IMG/VR virus record: IMGVR_UViG_638341084_000025
Length of the DNA stretch: 24,021 bases
Source of the DNA: a virus
Lineage: Duplodnaviria > Heunggongvirae > Uroviricota > Caudoviricetes
Reading direction: 5' to 3' (one strand)
The position numbers and the translations under genes are program-made. The number at the start of each line of letters is the position of its first letter. Position 1 is the first letter of the stretch. Of the stretch, positions 5,118 through 11,459 are shown in pieces. The notes under the pieces are model-generated. The model was given only the letters and a program-made list of their open reading frames with translations. It was not told the origin of the DNA and did no database searches.

Positions 5118-7940
5118 ATGACGGCAGAGTATATCAGGGACTGGCAACAACCGCGCCACGCAGTGGGGCGTGAAGGAACGGAGATCCCCGCTCCTGAATC
5201 CGCGCTTTCCTCCTGGCTGGATGCCTACCGGGTAGAGAACGAACGCCGCCAGGAAATGGCTGATGCGGCGTTCTCCGCCACGCCGCTGGGCAACCTGATT
5301 AATAAAAGCCTGGACGCACAGGAAAAACAGGACAAAACCATCACACTGGCAGGAGACGCCAGAAAACAGGCACGTGGCGCGGTGGATGAAGCCATGGCCT
5401 CACTGCGCCTGCTGCCGTCCTATCTGCGCGATCCGCTTATTCGCCACCTCTCCTTCCTGCGCAAAAAACAGGAAGCCGATCGCCGGAAAGGCAAAAAGAG
5501 CTGGCAGGCTGAACGCTACGCGTGCGGAACCCTGCGCAAAATATTCGAACGTCTGGACCGCACCGACCACCGCTGGCTGACACCGGGTTATCGCTCCCTT
5601 GCCGGACGCGAACGCCTGGATGATTTGCTTTACCTGCCGCAGCTCAACAAACACCAGATACAGACGCTGGCCACCATGACGGCGGCGATGTTCAGCAGCA
5701 CCTTCGAAAAACTCTGCGATGGCTTTGGCGCGACTGATGGCGAGCTGACCATGGATGTAACGCTGAAGGCTTATCAGATGCTGGCCCGCATGGCGTTACA
5801 CCTGCACGCCATGCCTCCACATTATGACGCACTGACAACAGACAAAGACCGGAGGAACGAACCGGACACGGAGCTGCTGCCGGGCGCAATCCTTCGCCTG
5901 ACCTGTGCGGAATGGTGGAAACGCAAACTGTGGCTGTTACGTTGTGAGTGGCGGGAAGAACAACTCCGCGCCGCCTGTCTGGTTTCCAGAAAAACATCCC
6001 CCTATCTGAGCCAGGACGCGTTAAGCGAGTTTCGCGCACAGCGCGAGAAAACGCGCGATTTCCTGAAAAGTTTCATGCTGGAAAATGAAGACGGGTTCAC
6101 GATTGATCTCGAGACGGTGTATTACGCGGGAGTAAGTAACCCGGTTCACCGTAAGGCAGAAATGATGGCCACCATGAAGGGACTGGAACTTCTGGCCGAA
6201 GCCCGTGGCGACAGAGCGGTGTTTCTGACCGTCACCTGCCCGTCAAAATACCACGCAACAACGGAGAACGGTCATCCGAACCCCAAATGGAACGGGGCCA
6301 CCATGCGCGACTCCAGCGATTACCTGGTTAACACGTTTTTTGCGGCGGTCCGCAAAAAACTGAACCGCGACGGCCTGCGCTGGTATGGCATCCGCACGGT
6401 GGAGCCTCACCATGACGGCACTGTGCACTGGCATATGATGGTCTTTGCACATCCGGACGAGATTGAAACCATCGTGTCCCACGTCTGCGATATTGCCATT
6501 CAGGAGGACCGCCACGAGCTGGGCGATGACATAACTCCGCGTTTTAAGGCGGAGTATGTCGACGGCTCAAAAGGCACACCAACCAGCTACATCGCCACCT
6601 ACATCGGAAAGAACCTGGACAGCCGCGCCGTGGATGGCATCGACCCGAAAACGGGCAAGCCACGCGTTGACCACGAAACAGGTAAATCAATGGCCGAGAG
6701 CGTGGAGCGCGCCATCGGCTGGGCGCGCCTTCACCGGGTCCGTCAGTTCCAGTTCTTTGGCATCCCCTCCCGTCAGGTGTGGCGTGAACTGCGCCGCCTT
6801 GCCAGCCAGATGGCACGCAATCCGGAAGGCCCGCAACGGCTGAAAGATGATGCAATGGATGCGGTACTCGCTGCCGCCGATGCCGGGTGTTTTGCCACCT
6901 ACATTGAAAAACAGGGTGGCGTGCTTGTTCCACGCAAGGACTACCTGATTCGCACCGCCTACGACCTCGCAGATGAGCTGAACGATTACGGCGAACAGAG
7001 CGTACAGATTTACGGGATCTGGTCACCACTCATCGGGGAATCCTCCCGTGTGTGCACGCATCCGGATAACTGGAAGCTGGTAAGACGTAAACCAGAACCG
7101 GAAGACAACGCCCACGAAAATGGTTTTGACCTTCAGGGCGGCCCTGCCGCCCCTTGGACTCGTGGCAATAACTGTCCCCGTGTACAGGAAACAGGCAACA
7201 ACGGGACAGAACAGCCGGAAGAACGGCCAGCACCGTGGCCGCAGCTTCCTGACGGCGTTGAAGTAAATGAATGGATGCGCTCACTGAAACGGCACGAACG
7301 CCGGGCGCTGATGCGTTCGCTTCGTGACAAACAGGCAAAAAACAGCAGCGATGAAATGCAGAACTGGACACAGAGCCGCAAACAGCAGCGGCCTTTGCCT
7401 GATAACCACGAGTTACTCGCTAAAGAATGGCGGGAGTCTGCTGAATCTCTCGGCCTGCATATCGGTGAACAACAGATGCAGCACCTGTTACGGGGCGGCA
7501 GTCTGTACGTTGACGGCAGCATCATTGCACCGCAGGGATTTGAAATTGTACGCAAACCGGATACCCGCCCGGACAGCCGAATCACGCAGCTCTGGCAGCG
7601 TCTGAGCCGTAATCATGGCGTAAGCAGCACGGAGATCCGCCATAACCCGGTCGCCAGCTATCTGGCACAGCTGGGGGCATCAGACCCTGAAGCCGCCGCA
7701 CGCCTGGCATCCACACTTCAGCAGGACCAGAACACCATGAAAACACCCGTTACCGTGCTTTCTGACATGCTGCGCGCCATCCGCGACGCAGAGCACGCAC
7801 AGAGAATCAGTGAAACCACTGAACGCGCCAGCCGCAAAGCAGACCTGCTGCGGGGTGGCCTGACCAGTGGAAACAAAAAACAGACAGAAACGGGACTCAC
7901 GAATCCCGTAAATGAGCAAAAAACGCGCAGCGATATATGA
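5118..7940 (+). CDS. A: Replication initiation endonuclease, P2 gpA family (HUH rolling-circle initiator)
   Basis: 940 aa; HUH-type motif VHWHMMVF and paired active-site tyrosines YIATYIGK as in P2 A; position after the early genes. The C-terminal ~300 aa is low-complexity and appears to extend beyond P2 A (761 aa from memory). Confidence 0.85.
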   Translation: MTAEYIRDWQQPRHAVGREGTEIPAPESALSSWLDAYRVENERRQEMADAAFSATPLGNLINKSLDAQEKQDKTITLAGDARKQARGAVDEAMASLRLLPSYLRDPLIRHLSFLRKKQEADRRKGKKSWQAERYACGTLRKIFERLDRTDHRWLTPGYRSLAGRERLDDLLYLPQLNKHQIQTLATMTAAMFSSTFEKLCDGFGATDGELTMDVTLKAYQMLARMALHLHAMPPHYDALTTDKDRRNEPDTELLPGAILRLTCAEWWKRKLWLLRCEWREEQLRAACLVSRKTSPYLSQDALSEFRAQREKTRDFLKSFMLENEDGFTIDLETVYYAGVSNPVHRKAEMMATMKGLELLAEARGDRAVFLTVTCPSKYHATTENGHPNPKWNGATMRDSSDYLVNTFFAAVRKKLNRDGLRWYGIRTVEPHHDGTVHWHMMVFAHPDEIETIVSHVCDIAIQEDRHELGDDITPRFKAEYVDGSKGTPTSYIATYIGKNLDSRAVDGIDPKTGKPRVDHETGKSMAESVERAIGWARLHRVRQFQFFGIPSRQVWRELRRLASQMARNPEGPQRLKDDAMDAVLAAADAGCFATYIEKQGGVLVPRKDYLIRTAYDLADELNDYGEQSVQIYGIWSPLIGESSRVCTHPDNWKLVRRKPEPEDNAHENGFDLQGGPAAPWTRGNNCPRVQETGNNGTEQPEERPAPWPQLPDGVEVNEWMRSLKRHERRALMRSLRDKQAKNSSDEMQNWTQSRKQQRPLPDNHELLAKEWRESAESLGLHIGEQQMQHLLRGGSLYVDGSIIAPQGFEIVRKPDTRPDSRITQLWQRLSRNHGVSSTEIRHNPVASYLAQLGASDPEAAARLASTLQQDQNTMKTPVTVLSDMLRAIRDAEHAQRISETTERASRKADLLRGGLTSGNKKQTETGLTNPVNEQKTRSDI

Positions 7941-7982
7941 AGCGCGCACAAAACAGGCAAAAACGGGATTTCAGAATCCCGT
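7890..7982. promoter_or_regulatory. Two near-identical palindromes, candidate parC centromere/operator
   Basis: ACGGGACTCACGAATCCCGT (7890-7909, inside the A 3' end) and ACGGGATTTCAGAATCCCGT (7963-7982), centres ~73 bp apart, just upstream of the parM RBS AAGGAAAA. Confidence 0.35.
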
Positions 7983-8016
7983 AAACGATTAATTAATCAA
8001 CATAAGGAAAACCGAC

Positions 8017-8976
8017 ATGAAAATTTACATCGACGACGGCTCCACCAACATCAAGCTGGCATGGACTGAGAACGGCGAACGCCGCAACGCCATCAGCCCG
8101 AACAGCTTCAAGTCGGAATGGTCTGCGCCGTTCGGTGGCTCGCAGCCTGCTAACTACATGCTTGATGGCGTGCGCTATGGTTTTGATCCGGTCAGCGATC
8201 GCTTTGTCCAGACGACCGACACGCAATACCAGTACAGCGATGTGAATGTCATTGCCATTCATCACGCGCTGGTCAAATCAGACATCACGCCACAGGAAGT
8301 GGATGTGGTTGTTACCCTGCCACTGAGCGAATATTTCGACACAAACGCACAGCCGGACATGGCCAACATCAACCGCAAAAAAGCGAACGTCATGCGCCCG
8401 GTGGAGTACCAGAACGGCGAAGCATTCACTATCCGTAACGTACGGGTTATGCCTGAATCCATTCCGGCTGGCTTTAAAGCACTGGCTGACATGAGTCCGT
8501 TTGAATCCCTGCTGATTGTGGATTTGGGCGGAACCACGCTGGATGTGGCAAAGGTTCAGGGGCAACTGGCAGGTATCAGCCAGGTGTTTTGCGATCCACA
8601 CGTAGGCGTTTCTCTTATGGCCGATGCCGTACTGTCGGTGATGGCCACTAACGGTATGCGCACCAGTCACCACATCGCCAATACCATTATCGAACATCGC
8701 CATAATGAAGCCTGGCTGCGCCAGCACATCCACAATGACGCGCATTACGCCAGCCTGATGGCGGTTATTCGTGAAAAGGAAGAAACACTGAAACAACGCG
8801 TGATCCGCGCGCTGGCGGTTTTTTCGGGTTACGGGCGGGTGATGGTTGTCGGTGGCGGGGCGGAGATTGTGGCACCCGCTATCCGCGAAGCCTGCGGAGT
8901 TAATGCGACTTTCATCGCGGACGGGGTGCCACANTTTGCTCTGGTTAATGGGCTGTACGCAATGGACAAGGAGTAA
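8017..8976 (+). CDS. parM: Actin-like segregation ATPase ParM/StbA
   Basis: 319 aa; MKIYIDDGSTNIKLAW, YSDVNVIAIHHAL, VMPESIPAG, LIVDLGGTTLD and VMVVGGGAEI closely follow the remembered plasmid R1 ParM sequence. One N at 8934. Confidence 0.85.
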   Translation: MKIYIDDGSTNIKLAWTENGERRNAISPNSFKSEWSAPFGGSQPANYMLDGVRYGFDPVSDRFVQTTDTQYQYSDVNVIAIHHALVKSDITPQEVDVVVTLPLSEYFDTNAQPDMANINRKKANVMRPVEYQNGEAFTIRNVRVMPESIPAGFKALADMSPFESLLIVDLGGTTLDVAKVQGQLAGISQVFCDPHVGVSLMADAVLSVMATNGMRTSHHIANTIIEHRHNEAWLRQHIHNDAHYASLMAVIREKEETLKQRVIRALAVFSGYGRVMVVGGGAEIVAPAIREACGVNATFIADGVPXFALVNGLYAMDKE

Positions 8977-8980
8977 ACCA

Positions 8981-9292
8981 ATGACGACACCAACCAGACG
9001 GATAAGTTTCTATCTGAAGCCCGCCGCCGTCAAGAACGAAGGAGAAGCATGCGCCTGGCTGGACAGCCTTACACCAGAAGCCCGCAAAAGCGGCCAACGC
9101 GTGGCTTTTCTGGCCGGGCTGGCACTTCTGAAGACGAATCCGGCAGAGGCTTACCGACTGGCCGCATGGGCTGATGATGAGATGTTACCTGTGACACAAA
9201 TCAGCTCAAAAAAGTTTGAAGCACAGTCTGCACCAGTGGCTAAGATAACCAGCCAGATGGCTGGGAATATCCGGGCGTTATTTCCTGAGTAA
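8981..9292 (+). CDS. parR: ParR-like centromere-binding adaptor (putative)
   Basis: 103 aa immediately after parM (stop 8976, ATG 8981, RBS AAGGAG); N-terminal RISFYLKP...ACAWLDSL and FLAGLALL loosely resemble R1 ParR (RHH fold). Assigned mainly by position and size. Confidence 0.45.
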   Translation: MTTPTRRISFYLKPAAVKNEGEACAWLDSLTPEARKSGQRVAFLAGLALLKTNPAEAYRLAAWADDEMLPVTQISSKKFEAQSAPVAKITSQMAGNIRALFPE

Positions 9293-9412
9293 AAGCATCT
9301 GCGCGAAAAATGCTCACGTTTATAGAGACAGTATCATTCCATTTGGCACACTTACTTCAATAATCGATCTGTTAAACAAATAGATTGTCTATTATCTATC
9401 GATTAAAACGAT

Positions 9413-9477
9413 CAATTATCTTGACAGTAATGTGCCTTTTTGTAAGATCGTTCGCATTGTGAGCGACAAGATAATTG
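9413..9477 (+). promoter_or_regulatory. Candidate promoter (TTGACA-16 nt-TAAGAT) bracketed by a perfect 11-bp inverted repeat
   Basis: -35 TTGACA 9421-9426, -10 TAAGAT 9443-9448; CAATTATCTTG (9413-9423) and its reverse complement CAAGATAATTG (9467-9477) flank the core, as an operator would. Confidence 0.35.
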
Positions 9478-9498
9478 CGCGGCATTGTCCATGCAAAA

Positions 9499-9526
9499 CG
9501 CCCCAATAGCAGCAACTATTGGGGCG
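9499..9526 (-). terminator. Perfect 11-bp-stem hairpin; terminator-like on the minus strand
   Basis: CGCCCCAATAG (9499-9509) / CTATTGGGGCG (9516-9526), loop CAGCAA; on the minus strand it is followed by TTTT (rc of 9495-9498); no U-tract on the plus strand. Confidence 0.4.
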
Positions 9527-9554
9527 TAAAACTCGGTCGGACTCACTTAACCTG

Positions 9555-9635
9555 ATATGCGTGCCTTCCGAAGTAAATCAAAATGTGCGTCGTATATTTT
9601 ATTGCTTACACGCACCTCTGTAAAGGCACGCATAT
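9555..9635. repeat. 13-bp perfect inverted repeat enclosing an inner hairpin
   Basis: ATATGCGTGCCTT (9555-9567) and AAGGCACGCATAT (9623-9635), 55 bp apart; inner stem GTGCGT(9585-9590)/ACGCAC(9610-9615); followed on the plus strand by TTTTT, then GAGG and the GTG start of the next ORF. Confidence 0.5.
9596..9624 (-). promoter_or_regulatory. Candidate minus-strand promoter (TTTACA-17 nt-TAAAAT), convergent with the plus-strand promoter
   Basis: rc of 9619-9624 = TTTACA, 17-nt spacer, rc of 9596-9601 = TAAAAT; it would drive a ~100-nt transcript antisense to the ORF89 leader, ending at the 9499-9526 hairpin. Confidence 0.35.
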
Positions 9636-9656
9636 TTTTCCTATGAGGTAAATAAA

Positions 9657-9926
9657 GTGCGGGCTAAAACAGGTATTTGCAAGAACCCTCATCGTTATAA
9701 TCCAACATTTCTGTCTCTCCCTGAATATCAAGGACAAGAAGGTCGGCACAAATGCGCTGCCTGTGCTTTTGAGCTAGGCATAAAAGATGCGCTTGAAGGA
9801 CGCGCTATGGCTCAGAATGATTTAGTTTTAGCTAACATTCCGTTTAGCCAGGCTGGAACTGTAAGGCACAGAGATGCCTATGAAGCATATGTTCGTGGTT
9901 GGCGATTAATAAACAGCAACAATTGA
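9657..9926 (+). CDS. Small Cys/His protein (89 aa), possible zinc-binding; unknown function
   Basis: GTG start with GAGG 9 nt upstream; Cys8, His12, His32, Cys34, Cys37 arrangement; followed by a clean terminator. Last gene before cos (P2 has orf91/tin/old in this position). Confidence 0.5.
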   Translation: MRAKTGICKNPHRYNPTFLSLPEYQGQEGRHKCAACAFELGIKDALEGRAMAQNDLVLANIPFSQAGTVRHRDAYEAYVRGWRLINSNN

Positions 9927-9934
9927 TACTTTTG

Positions 9935-9958
9935 AAGCGCCGATAAGGCGCTTTTTTT
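9935..9958 (+). terminator. Rho-independent terminator
   Basis: Stem AAGCGCC(9935-9941)/GGCGCTT(9947-9953), loop GATAA, then a T-run to 9958. Confidence 0.6.
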
Positions 9959-10084: not shown

Positions 10085-10103
10085 GGTGACGGGGGAACAG
10101 CCC
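10085..10103. other. Candidate cos cohesive-end site
   Basis: GGTGACGGGGGAACAGCCC matches about 13 of 19 positions of the P2 cohesive end as remembered (GGCGAGGCGGGGAAAGCAC); it lies between the accessory island and Q, as in P2; a cluster of N bases at 10127-10151 is consistent with read ends or assembly trouble at cos. Confidence 0.3.
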
Positions 10104-10362
10104 GCGTTTCAGGGGGTAAATAGCATNCCCTGAACGATGTCGCAGNGANANAACAGAATGGCTGTATTTCTCACGCTGAGCGTGAAAAAGACGTGAGGGC
10201 TTTTGATTTGATGGGGTGAAAGGTAAGGCCGTCAAAATCGCACTGAGACGGCGAGAACATGCAGTCAACGCGGTGGGATTGCGTAAGAGTCTGACTGTCG
10301 ATGATGGCAATCAGCAGGAAAGCGTCGTGAAATTATCTGACTGATACAGGAGCTGGAGAGTC

Positions 10363-10385: not shown

Positions 10386-10412
10386 GGCGAAGCAGCAGAC
10401 AAGCGAAGNGCG

Positions 10413-11459
10413 TCAGGATGTGGGCTGGGTGTCTAACAGTGCGTAAGGGTTAAAGCGGATCACCTCTTCGCCAAGCCAGTCATTGATGTGCTTCATGGCC
10501 TCCATGACGGGCATCAGCTCGTTAATTGCGTAAACCCGCGCGGCCTTCTCCACATCACCAAACGCACTTTTTTCGCCCGGCATCGCCCCCATCAGTTGCG
10601 GCGGAACGCGGTGCGCAGCCAGCACATCATCACGGGATGCCGCCTTAACATTCATGAACTCATCTTTTGCGGTGATCTGCTGGAACGGCAAAATTTGCAC
10701 CCCTTCTTTGCCCCCGTTGGGCGCATGAATGAGCACGTTTTTAAATGCACCACCACCACGCGCACCCTGTAACGTTTCTTTCAGGGAGTCCATGCTTTCG
10801 CGGTTTACCTGCGCTGCACCGATGTAGATGATGCACCCGGCGTGGGATCCGTTGTCGTAGTACAGTTTTCTGAACATGTCCGCCGAATGAGAAAGGCTGG
10901 CCGAGAGTAATGCGCCAAGATATTCCGGCATGCCGTAGATTTCCTGGTTAATATCCGGATTCATCAGGTGGCACACTTTGCCAGGGCGAAACTGGAACGC
11001 GTCCTTGCCATCCTGCACATACCACCATGATTCAAGATCGCTTCCGCGTCGCATGTATTTCGCCAGGGCGTGCCGTAATTTAAGCGGTTCGCCGAGCATA
11101 TTGCTCCGAAGCTCAAGGAATGCGTTACCGAACACAAACCAGTCCAGCGCCAGCGCCGAGAAATCCTGCCGGGAAAGCAGCGGGTGCGGGATGTAGCACC
11201 CGAGCAATACATTACGCTTAAAGTAAAGCGCAGACTGATGCCAGGACGTTTGCCGGGCNGCTCTTGCCAGACNGTACCAGTCCACCGGGGTTTCATACCA
11301 CCGCCCGTTATCAGCACAGTACATATTGTCCAGCAGGTCATGCCCGGTCAGGCGATAAGGACCATCAAATGTGAATGCACTGAGCGATGATTCTTTCCTG
11401 AGCGCATCAGCGAGATCAATGCGTGAACTCATGCGCACTTTTTTATTTTTTCTGCTCAT
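10413..11459 (-). CDS. Q: Portal protein (P2 gpQ)
   Basis: 348 aa minus-strand ORF; N-terminus MSRKNKKVRMSSRIDLADAL and size fit P2 Q; start codon overlaps the P stop. Contains N bases (X in translation). Confidence 0.9.
   Translation of the reverse strand: MSRKNKKVRMSSRIDLADALRKESSLSAFTFDGPYRLTGHDLLDNMYCADNGRWYETPVDWYXLARXARQTSWHQSALYFKRNVLLGCYIPHPLLSRQDFSALALDWFVFGNAFLELRSNMLGEPLKLRHALAKYMRRGSDLESWWYVQDGKDAFQFRPGKVCHLMNPDINQEIYGMPEYLGALLSASLSHSADMFRKLYYDNGSHAGCIIYIGAAQVNRESMDSLKETLQGARGGGAFKNVLIHAPNGGKEGVQILPFQQITAKDEFMNVKAASRDDVLAAHRVPPQLMGAMPGEKSAFGDVEKAARVYAINELMPVMEAMKHINDWLGEEVIRFNPYALLDTQPTS

Follow-up and report, generated by a model that had tools for sequence, protein, structure and literature searches.

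A prophage zinc-knuckle protein with predicted antisense control belongs to a family genomically linked to Dam-class methyltransferases

The interval between gpA and gpQ is a documented defence hotspot of P2-like phages (PMC9122126; PMC13586616). Here we analysed a gene for an 89-aa protein that lies in this interval, in a 24,021-nt stretch of viral DNA (IMG/VR record IMGVR_UViG_638341084_000025; the window), which represents an integrated, P2-like Xuanwuvirus prophage and is 97-99% identical to Escherichia phage 520873. The IS10/Tn10 transposase, with its Dam-sensitive pIN and RNA-OUT, and finP/traJ of F-like plasmids resemble this locus in combining a mobile gene, GATC in the promoter region and a short opposing cis-antisense RNA. 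However, the window product is a small zinc-knuckle protein rather than a transposase or transfer activator, the predicted antisense RNA lies over the middle of a 200-nt leader and leaves the start codon uncovered, and Dam dependence is presumed here. Type I toxin-antitoxin (TA) systems, both hok/sok and the soluble-toxin pairs symE/symR and ralR/ralA, are alike in their long structured 5' untranslated region (UTR), occluded ribosome-binding site (RBS), cis-encoded small RNA (sRNA) with its own promoter and terminator, and prophage or plasmid location, whereas our gene encodes no hydrophobic peptide, most of its homologues lack the RNA, and its protein family has no relation to the known type I toxins. 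In the reader-nuclease restriction enzymes (EVE, SRA or McrB-N with PD-(D/E)xK or HNH) and the candidate defence system PDC-S36, the likeness is a doubled domain of this family in the N-terminal reader slot of NOV_C and HNH_2 nucleases, while the window protein would be the reader alone, without a nuclease. SeqA, MutH and DpnI/DpnII, which read the methylation state of GATC, are comparable in the function that we propose below and in the strict partnership with D12 methyltransferases or Dam+ hosts, but show no sequence or fold similarity. Controller (C) proteins are also encoded by small accessory genes inside type II restriction-modification (R-M) operons, although the present family has no helix-turn-helix (HTH) and the operon promoters hold no candidate GATC operator. 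P2 Ogr and P4 Delta are small Cys-containing proteins in the P2-like setting, but they are not homologous to the window protein, whose gene is accessory and not core.

The open reading frame (ORF) is genuine, since its match statistics lie far past chance. Its GTG start and good RBS had been noted in a first-pass annotation made from the DNA letters, and both were borne out.

9657-9926, plus strand: ORF with GTG start, encoding the 89-aa zinc-knuckle protein with two tandem LPxSQxGxxRH + AYxxG units
9645-9648, plus strand: Shine-Dalgarno GAGG, 8 nt upstream of the start (direct sequence reading)

Each unit is about 40 residues long and consists of LP-x-SQ-x-G-x-x-RH followed by the helix AYxxG, the family consensus being LPxxQGGxGRHKCxxCAYxxG and then LPxSQAGxxRHKxxxxAYxxGY. 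The first unit holds a conserved C-x3-H ... C-x2-C arrangement which, from its pattern, is likely the metal site of the protein. The Cys/His positions given in the first-pass annotation were correct for C8 and H12, and the remaining three (H32, C34 and C37) were each off by one, the actual residues being H31, C33 and C36. Among 50 diverse homologues, these five positions are each at least 90% conserved and R30, G41, Q65, R70 and H71 are invariant, so that the view of a small Cys/His protein stands, with a conserved four-ligand site formed by C8, H12, C33 and C36. The AlphaFold2 model on the family alignment (mean predicted local distance difference test score 89.6, predicted template modelling score 0.82) has short bridges and then a helix in each half. 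C33 and C36 are positioned at the N-terminal start of predicted helix 34-46, which matches, together with the four conserved Cys/His, the ligand arrangement of a zinc knuckle or treble clef. As judged from its sequence, the protein is soluble and mildly basic (net charge about +4) and lacks hydrophobic segments.

Homology searches placed the protein in PHROG 3941, a family of unknown function (E = 9.1e-49, residues 4-89 against profile positions 1-86 of 86). An exhaustive phmmer search gave 173 representative clusters and a profile search 1,596 clusters, and the sources that name family members call them hypothetical protein. A single-protein scan of genome contigs gave 4 loci, and no match to P0005 turned up in a viral scan. 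At E up to 1, Pfam returned a single irrelevant match (0.06) and neither Ogr_Delta nor RMF, in agreement with the earlier remark that the protein is not Ogr. NCBIfam and PADLOC scans of the 89-aa protein gave no useful match, the PDC-S36 profile included, and the family profile had 0 matches in the PDB sequences at E up to 10. In the Foldseek search with the confident model no match was significant; the best was ribosome modulation factor RMF (2jrm; E = 1.0, probability 0.51), and hhalign against RMF reached a probability of 5.7%, the common part being the A-x-x-G-Y-x-x-G helix motif alone. No account of this gene or RNA was found in the literature on the PHROG, the linked DUFs, or prophage cassettes with Dam and antisense control. 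Members of the family occur on phages, conjugative plasmids and integrative elements. Two metagenomic members of 182-187 aa, P0003 and P0153, are natural tandem duplications with two complete copies of the small protein per chain. On a Vibrio campbellii plasmid (L027 3243-5359), four genes (80, 86, 344 and 187 aa) form a tight operon with that for the zinc protein in second place; the partners had no meaningful Pfam match, and the NCBIfam scan, which covered the 344-aa protein only, gave a sub-threshold acylphosphatase match for it (17 bits against a cut-off of 109 bits).

The genomic link of this family to Dam-class methylation is strong and previously undescribed, and this strongest functional clue was missed by the first-pass annotation. 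In a tblastn census of all fetched loci, a D12 methyltransferase was present in the fetched flanks of 24 of the 27 non-gammaproteobacterial loci; many of these 24 are near-duplicates, and together they represent about 10 distinct gene arrangements. The three loci without it are a deletion variant (L012), a 2.7-kb contig (L016) and a contig end (L099). Among the gammaproteobacterial loci and the phage or viral contigs, the latter without a host label, a D12 methyltransferase was found in 0 of 75, and the window has none either. The named hosts of these solitary copies are Escherichia, Salmonella, Providencia, Arsenophonus, Enterobacter, Kosakonia, Serratia, Vibrio, Aliivibrio and Aeromonas, lineages that possess chromosomal Dam, the founding D12 enzyme. 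The linked arrangements were found in Bacteroidales contigs, several of them on mobile elements, and in Lactobacillaceae plasmids. One of them is a cassette of three genes, in which a D12 methyltransferase and a protein of about 425 aa with DUF6996/DUF6997/DUF7226 are followed by the zinc protein as the last gene, at the following positions:

L010, 2872-5255: three-gene D12 cassette
L092, 2873-5258: three-gene D12 cassette
L028, 1307-3752: three-gene D12 cassette
L102, 1321-3644: three-gene D12 cassette

This cassette, which probably represents an R-M system not characterised before, is common to Bacteroidales genomes and Lactobacillaceae plasmids, with one copy among housekeeping genes, and its middle protein matched nothing in PDB or NCBIfam. 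In another arrangement, the zinc gene comes first and is clustered with the same methylase pair and a gene for a DUF3644 HEPN protein. On Bacteroidales mobile elements, this DUF3644 (HEPN; HEC-08-like) protein adjoins the zinc protein and the methylase pair at L014 5271-6584, L017 5317-6612 and L091 1203-2174 (PMC3710099; bioRxiv 10.1101/2024.01.29.577857). DpnII-type operons also contain the zinc domain, in one case as a 279-aa fusion between DpnII and a second methylase. We considered whether the C-terminal part of this fusion equals the 178-aa gene of DpnII operons and rejected it, as there is no similarity.

Two copies of the unit also form the N-terminus of NOV_C (PD-(D/E)xK) and HNH_2 nucleases. 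The 2xZn-NOV_C relatives match PADLOC PDC-S36 with E = 1e-40 to 1e-51, and in their sister NOV_C proteins the same N-terminal slot is taken by EVE, MrcB_N or DUF3427. The fused nucleases sit in operons of the order D12 methylase, PDDEXK_11 and nuclease:

L100, 3792-5843: 2xZn-NOV_C nuclease (PDC-S36), co-operonic with a small PDDEXK_11 protein and a D12 methylase
L101, 1726-3777: the same arrangement
L096, 5001-7266: the same arrangement

On this evidence, PDC-S36 may be an R-M-like system of several genes instead of a defence made of a single gene. Considering that the fused nucleases are co-operonic with a D12 methyltransferase, they would read the unmodified rather than the modified site. 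The unit is further fused to the C-termini of DndB/DpdB-like and HTH-WYL proteins.

In the window, the 89-aa gene is a solitary exchangeable cargo in the gpA-gpQ hotspot of a Xuanwuvirus prophage; novel cargo was one of the possibilities named in the first-pass annotation. Variable genes are located there between the conserved flanks gpA, accompanied in this prophage by parMR, and gpQ. When the window was compared by blastn with the sister phages P88 and PhiR44_2, the flanks at 7900-9292 and 9935/9947-10500 were 92-95% identical and the interiors were unrelated. Because the flanks match while the interiors differ, we delimited the cassette as follows.

9293-9946, plus strand: cargo cassette, 654 bp, with other genes at this place in P88 and PhiR44_2 (blastn against L089 and L090)
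9934-9954, plus strand: intrinsic terminator, a hairpin then a T-run, at the hotspot boundary and common to the phage backbone

The homology restarts at 9935 in PhiR44_2 and at 9947 in P88, both of which are Xuanwuviruses with different cargo. The terminator seen in the first-pass annotation is thus present, hairpin and T-run alike, but it is a feature of the backbone and not the gene's own. Relatives of at least 50% identity were found in three phage contexts that are unrelated to one another, the first being the P2-like hotspot of the window. In lambdoid elements of Providencia and Arsenophonus, the gene lies on the opposite strand between the Q antiterminator and the lysis genes, and in P22-like Salmonella phages it lies directly downstream of cI in an 81-aa form that is present in more than 1,000 contigs.

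All of these relatives, P2-like, lambdoid and P22-like, have a homologous region of about 220 nt upstream of the gene. The features of this region in the window are as follows.

9366-9449: cluster of three GATC sites (9366, 9410 and 9446) around the sense promoter, the third overlapping the -10 (TAAGATC)
9413-9423 and 9467-9477: perfect 11-nt inverted repeat (CAATTATCTTG / CAAGATAATTG) that brackets the sense promoter, a candidate operator (repeat search)
9421-9448, plus strand: sense sigma-70-type promoter TTGACA-16-TAAGAT, 10 of 12 consensus positions, its -35 and -10 aligned in the homologous leaders
9455-9656, plus strand: 5' leader of the ORF mRNA, about 200 nt, start approximate; minimum free energy -71.4 kcal/mol, z = -3.86
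9489-9589, minus strand: predicted cis-antisense sRNA of about 100 nt, ends approximate, from conserved promoter to conserved terminator
9498-9527, minus strand: antisense terminator, a GC-rich hairpin of 12-13 bp then TTTTG (repeat search)
9555-9567 and 9623-9635, plus strand: long-range 13-bp stem, its 5' arm inside the antisense-covered region (repeat search)
9596-9624, minus strand: antisense promoter TTTACA-17-TAAAAT, 10 of 12 consensus positions

Motifs of the ATCGAT type were also observed just upstream of the inverted repeat (9360-9412). The structured leader described in the first-pass annotation was confirmed, as 0 of 200 shuffles fold as well, and its layout is kept among the relatives. 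The heavy control claimed there likewise held and turned out to be richer, comprising a predicted cis-antisense sRNA, promoters rich in GATC and an occluded RBS and start, all kept across phage types; the accompanying idea that the protein is toxic or conditionally deployed was inferred from this control architecture only. In every subclade other than that of the window, a local hairpin sequesters the Shine-Dalgarno sequence together with the start codon, and its arms differ by subclade (GCACCUU/AAGGUGC, GAUGCC/GGUAUC and CCUGU/ACAGG). In the window, the long-range 13-bp stem replaces this local hairpin. When the antisense-covered segment was blocked in constrained folding, the freed 3' arm of the stem was predicted to pair with the GUG start region, and such a switch in the window leader would make the sRNA a repressor. 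Since the distant homologues are found in ordinary operons without any leader, the protein does not intrinsically need such control.

The cassette is predicted to hold a conserved, previously unannotated antisense sRNA. The most conserved element of the upstream region is TGTAAAG, which on the other strand is the antisense -35, and among 13 diverged leaders the -35 CTTTAC, the -10 TAnnnT and the 17-nt spacer of the antisense promoter are invariant. Downstream of it, the minus strand contains a stem-loop and then a GC-rich hairpin with a U-tract, and 10 of 12 pairs of the terminator stem show double compensatory changes in the family. As a plain MAFFT alignment left the hairpins out of register for RNAalifold, we used a hand-specified structure, a covariance model and re-alignment instead. 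The covariance model, built from 7 P22-like copies with the window left out, detected complete copies in three further subclades (E = 1e-5 to 3e-3) and recovered the Providencia copies weakly (E = 0.03). In the alignment fitted to this model, which leans towards that structure, 90.5% of cells were paired compared with 44-58% when the partners were slid, 17 of 21 pairs had double compensatory changes, and the covariation score was 0.44 compared with 0.05-0.10 in the slid controls. Three pairs are mainly G-U on the minus strand and would be A-C mismatches when read on the plus strand; since G-U pairs are legal on the minus strand only, the minus strand seems to be the functional RNA. No Rfam family matched the leader or sRNA, with only sub-threshold terminator-type matches in the window (ctRNA_pGA1 with 22 bits against 45; sar with 22 against 43), and Rfam found nothing at the cassette in four other loci.

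The control region is also marked by its GATC sites. The window has 3 sites in 84 nt around the sense promoter compared with 1 per 407 nt overall. In the 13 diverged leaders, which are related and hence not independent samples for this statistic, there are 48 GATC sites, compared with 9.3 +/- 3.0 in dinucleotide shuffles, a 5-fold enrichment (z = 13), and GATC is the sole palindromic tetramer so enriched. One conserved position lies just before the sense -35 and another at or beyond the sense -10; the others are in the spacer of the antisense promoter and at the 5' end of the sRNA. In relatives, the site at the sRNA 5' end lies in a palindrome, GAGATCTC or GTGATCAC, which the window copy does not have.

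Based on these associations, we propose that the 89-aa protein is a reader of an unmethylated Dam-type site that is conditionally deployed by the prophage, a reading to which we assign a probability of roughly 40%. The domain would be a DNA-reading module for an unmethylated Dam-type target, most likely GATC. A nuclease encoded together with a methylase in one operon has to leave methylated DNA intact, so the domain should read the unmethylated target, and GATC is the likely site given the DpnII partners. In Dam+ enterics, the host Dam would be the partner methylase, which may be why the gene travels alone there. The prophage would hold the protein near silent by antisense RNA and start-site occlusion, and expression would rise when the balance of sense and antisense transcription or the methylation of the GATC-bearing promoters shifts, as upon replication, DNA entry or transcription shut-off. 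The released protein could then bind under-methylated DNA, for example of a rapidly replicating invader, with exclusion of that DNA or growth arrest as the outcome. A solitary reader overproduced in a Dam+ host could upset replication-linked GATC transactions, which would fit the tight control and the GATC-bearing promoters. It is speculation that the invariant Gln and Arg of each unit can read adenine and guanine, suiting a palindromic site. While the anatomy of the locus (the protein, cargo cassette, sense promoter, antisense sRNA and start occlusion) is well supported, the mechanism is plausible but unproven.

Several points weigh against the proposed reader. In DpnII operons, the restriction enzyme itself reads GATC, which leaves no evident task for a separate reader. 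GATC is almost missing from the promoter and intergenic regions of the R-M operons (0-1 in the promoter regions), which counts against a simple regulator acting at this site. The GATC enrichment of the leaders could be explained by Dam/SeqA control of the promoters, unlinked to the activity of the protein itself. The specificity of the D12 partners is assumed from the DpnII partners, and the DUF6996/7-linked systems lie outside that basis. In addition, the window antisense RNA fits the family model in its terminator part only (9499-9529, minus strand, 16.5 bits, E = 0.07; the top window match, on the expected strand), and the fold searches of the model gave no evidence for DNA binding. The wider proposition is more tentative, and we regard it as doubtful: that tandem zinc-knuckle units are a new kind of DNA reader for an unmethylated Dam-type site, with D12 partners across phyla, which would act both as the targeting module of a new R-M nuclease architecture (D12, PDDEXK_11 and 2xZn-NOV_C) and as a solitary prophage factor with host Dam as the 'self' mark, under a Dam- and antisense-dependent switch in enteric phages that would free the protein solely upon disturbed methylation or transcription.

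The cassette might alternatively be an addiction or abortive-infection module resembling type I TA, in which a toxin mRNA is checked by an unstable antisense sRNA and prophage loss or phage-induced transcription shut-off leads to growth stop. An antisense RNA that has its own promoter and terminator and overlaps the mRNA is what we found, as a conserved prediction, here over a long and structured 5' UTR in which the RBS and start are occluded. Moreover, the cassette is self-contained and mobile between phage types, the gene directly follows the parMR partition genes, and plasmid relatives lie near yefM/yoeB, RES and TIR genes. The protein itself fits poorly, being an 89-aa, soluble, mildly basic and zinc-knuckle-like product compared with the typical small hydrophobic toxins of usually <60 aa, and in most of the family the gene is without leader or sRNA and shares its transcript with methylase and nuclease genes. 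We consider this explanation rather unlikely; it concerns deployment and not biochemistry and so can coexist with the reader hypothesis. An anti-restriction or anti-defence role, by which a free reader domain masks target sites or competes with 2xZn-NOV_C-type nucleases and thereby shields an incoming mobile element, would agree with the carriage by phages, conjugative plasmids and integrative elements and with the use of the same domain as the N-terminal module of candidate defence nucleases. Its co-occurrence in operons with restriction and methylase genes rather points to the defence side. The gene positions and orientations seem typical of accessory genes expressed in the lysogen and not of early lytic genes, and enteric hosts are Dam+, so that GATC-directed restriction is no obvious threat to their phages; we judge this role improbable.

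The same low likelihood applies to a transcription regulator, either a non-HTH analogue of the R-M controller proteins or an autoregulator in a Dam-dependent epigenetic switch at its own promoters. Such a regulator would account for the place of this small gene first or last in R-M operons, for the fusion to the C-terminus of HTH-WYL regulators and DndB/DpdB-like proteins, and for the GATC-centred palindromes conserved in its own control region. However, the window copy has no GAGATCTC element, and the nuclease fusions favour targeting over regulation. The variant in which a controller acts at GATC in the R-M operon promoters was rejected, given that almost no GATC is found there. A zinc-finger late activator like P2 Ogr, or a translation factor like RMF, was suggested by a small Cys/His protein in a P2-like phage and by the best fold match, in which the helix motif aligns. 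This idea is effectively refuted and scarcely credible considering the missing Pfam matches, the weak hhalign probability and the status of the gene as dispensable cargo that is missing from the sister phages.

With respect to the surroundings, the 701-bp region around the ORF is present in 166 of 5,426 complete E. coli genomes (~3%), O157:H7 strains included, and every copy is chromosomal. The cassette is 100% identical in, for instance, O157:H7 FRIK944 and strain 300709. In one genome, that of E. coli CH4793 (H45, 1996368-1997845), an IS1 element splits the otherwise 99.9% identical region. The neighbouring genes in the window are as follows.

5118-7940: replication protein
8017-8976: ParM
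8981-9292: ParR/StbB
10413-11459, minus strand: portal gene

The order is thus replication protein, ParM, ParR/StbB, the 89-aa ORF, a non-coding stretch, portal and large terminase, with the 89-aa ORF as the final plus-strand gene ahead of the minus-strand portal gene. A plasmid-type parMR partition module is present inside the integrated P2-like prophage (7901-9292), and two 15-nt direct repeats, GAATCCCGTAAA(T/C)GA, at 7901 and 7974 upstream of parM could belong to a centromere. The sequence GGTGACGGGGGAACAGCCC at 10085-10103 presumably resembles the 19-nt cohesive end of P2 (GGCGAGGCGGGGAAAGCAC). The assembly is imperfect, since ambiguous bases (n) at 10127-10150, at 10409 and inside the portal, terminase and ParM ORFs give rise to X residues.

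If the reader hypothesis is true, it would provide a function for about 1,600 clusters of 'hypothetical protein' and for the candidate defence system PDC-S36, and it would explain the strict pairing of a nameless domain with Dam-class methylases. The prophage would then use the housekeeping Dam methylation of its host as a mark of self and non-self, without a methylase or nuclease of its own. This may, as speculation, have a bearing on the many coliphages that encode their own Dam. Whatever the function of the protein, the cassette adds a conserved, unannotated predicted antisense sRNA to about 3% of complete E. coli genomes and to more than 1,000 Salmonella contigs.

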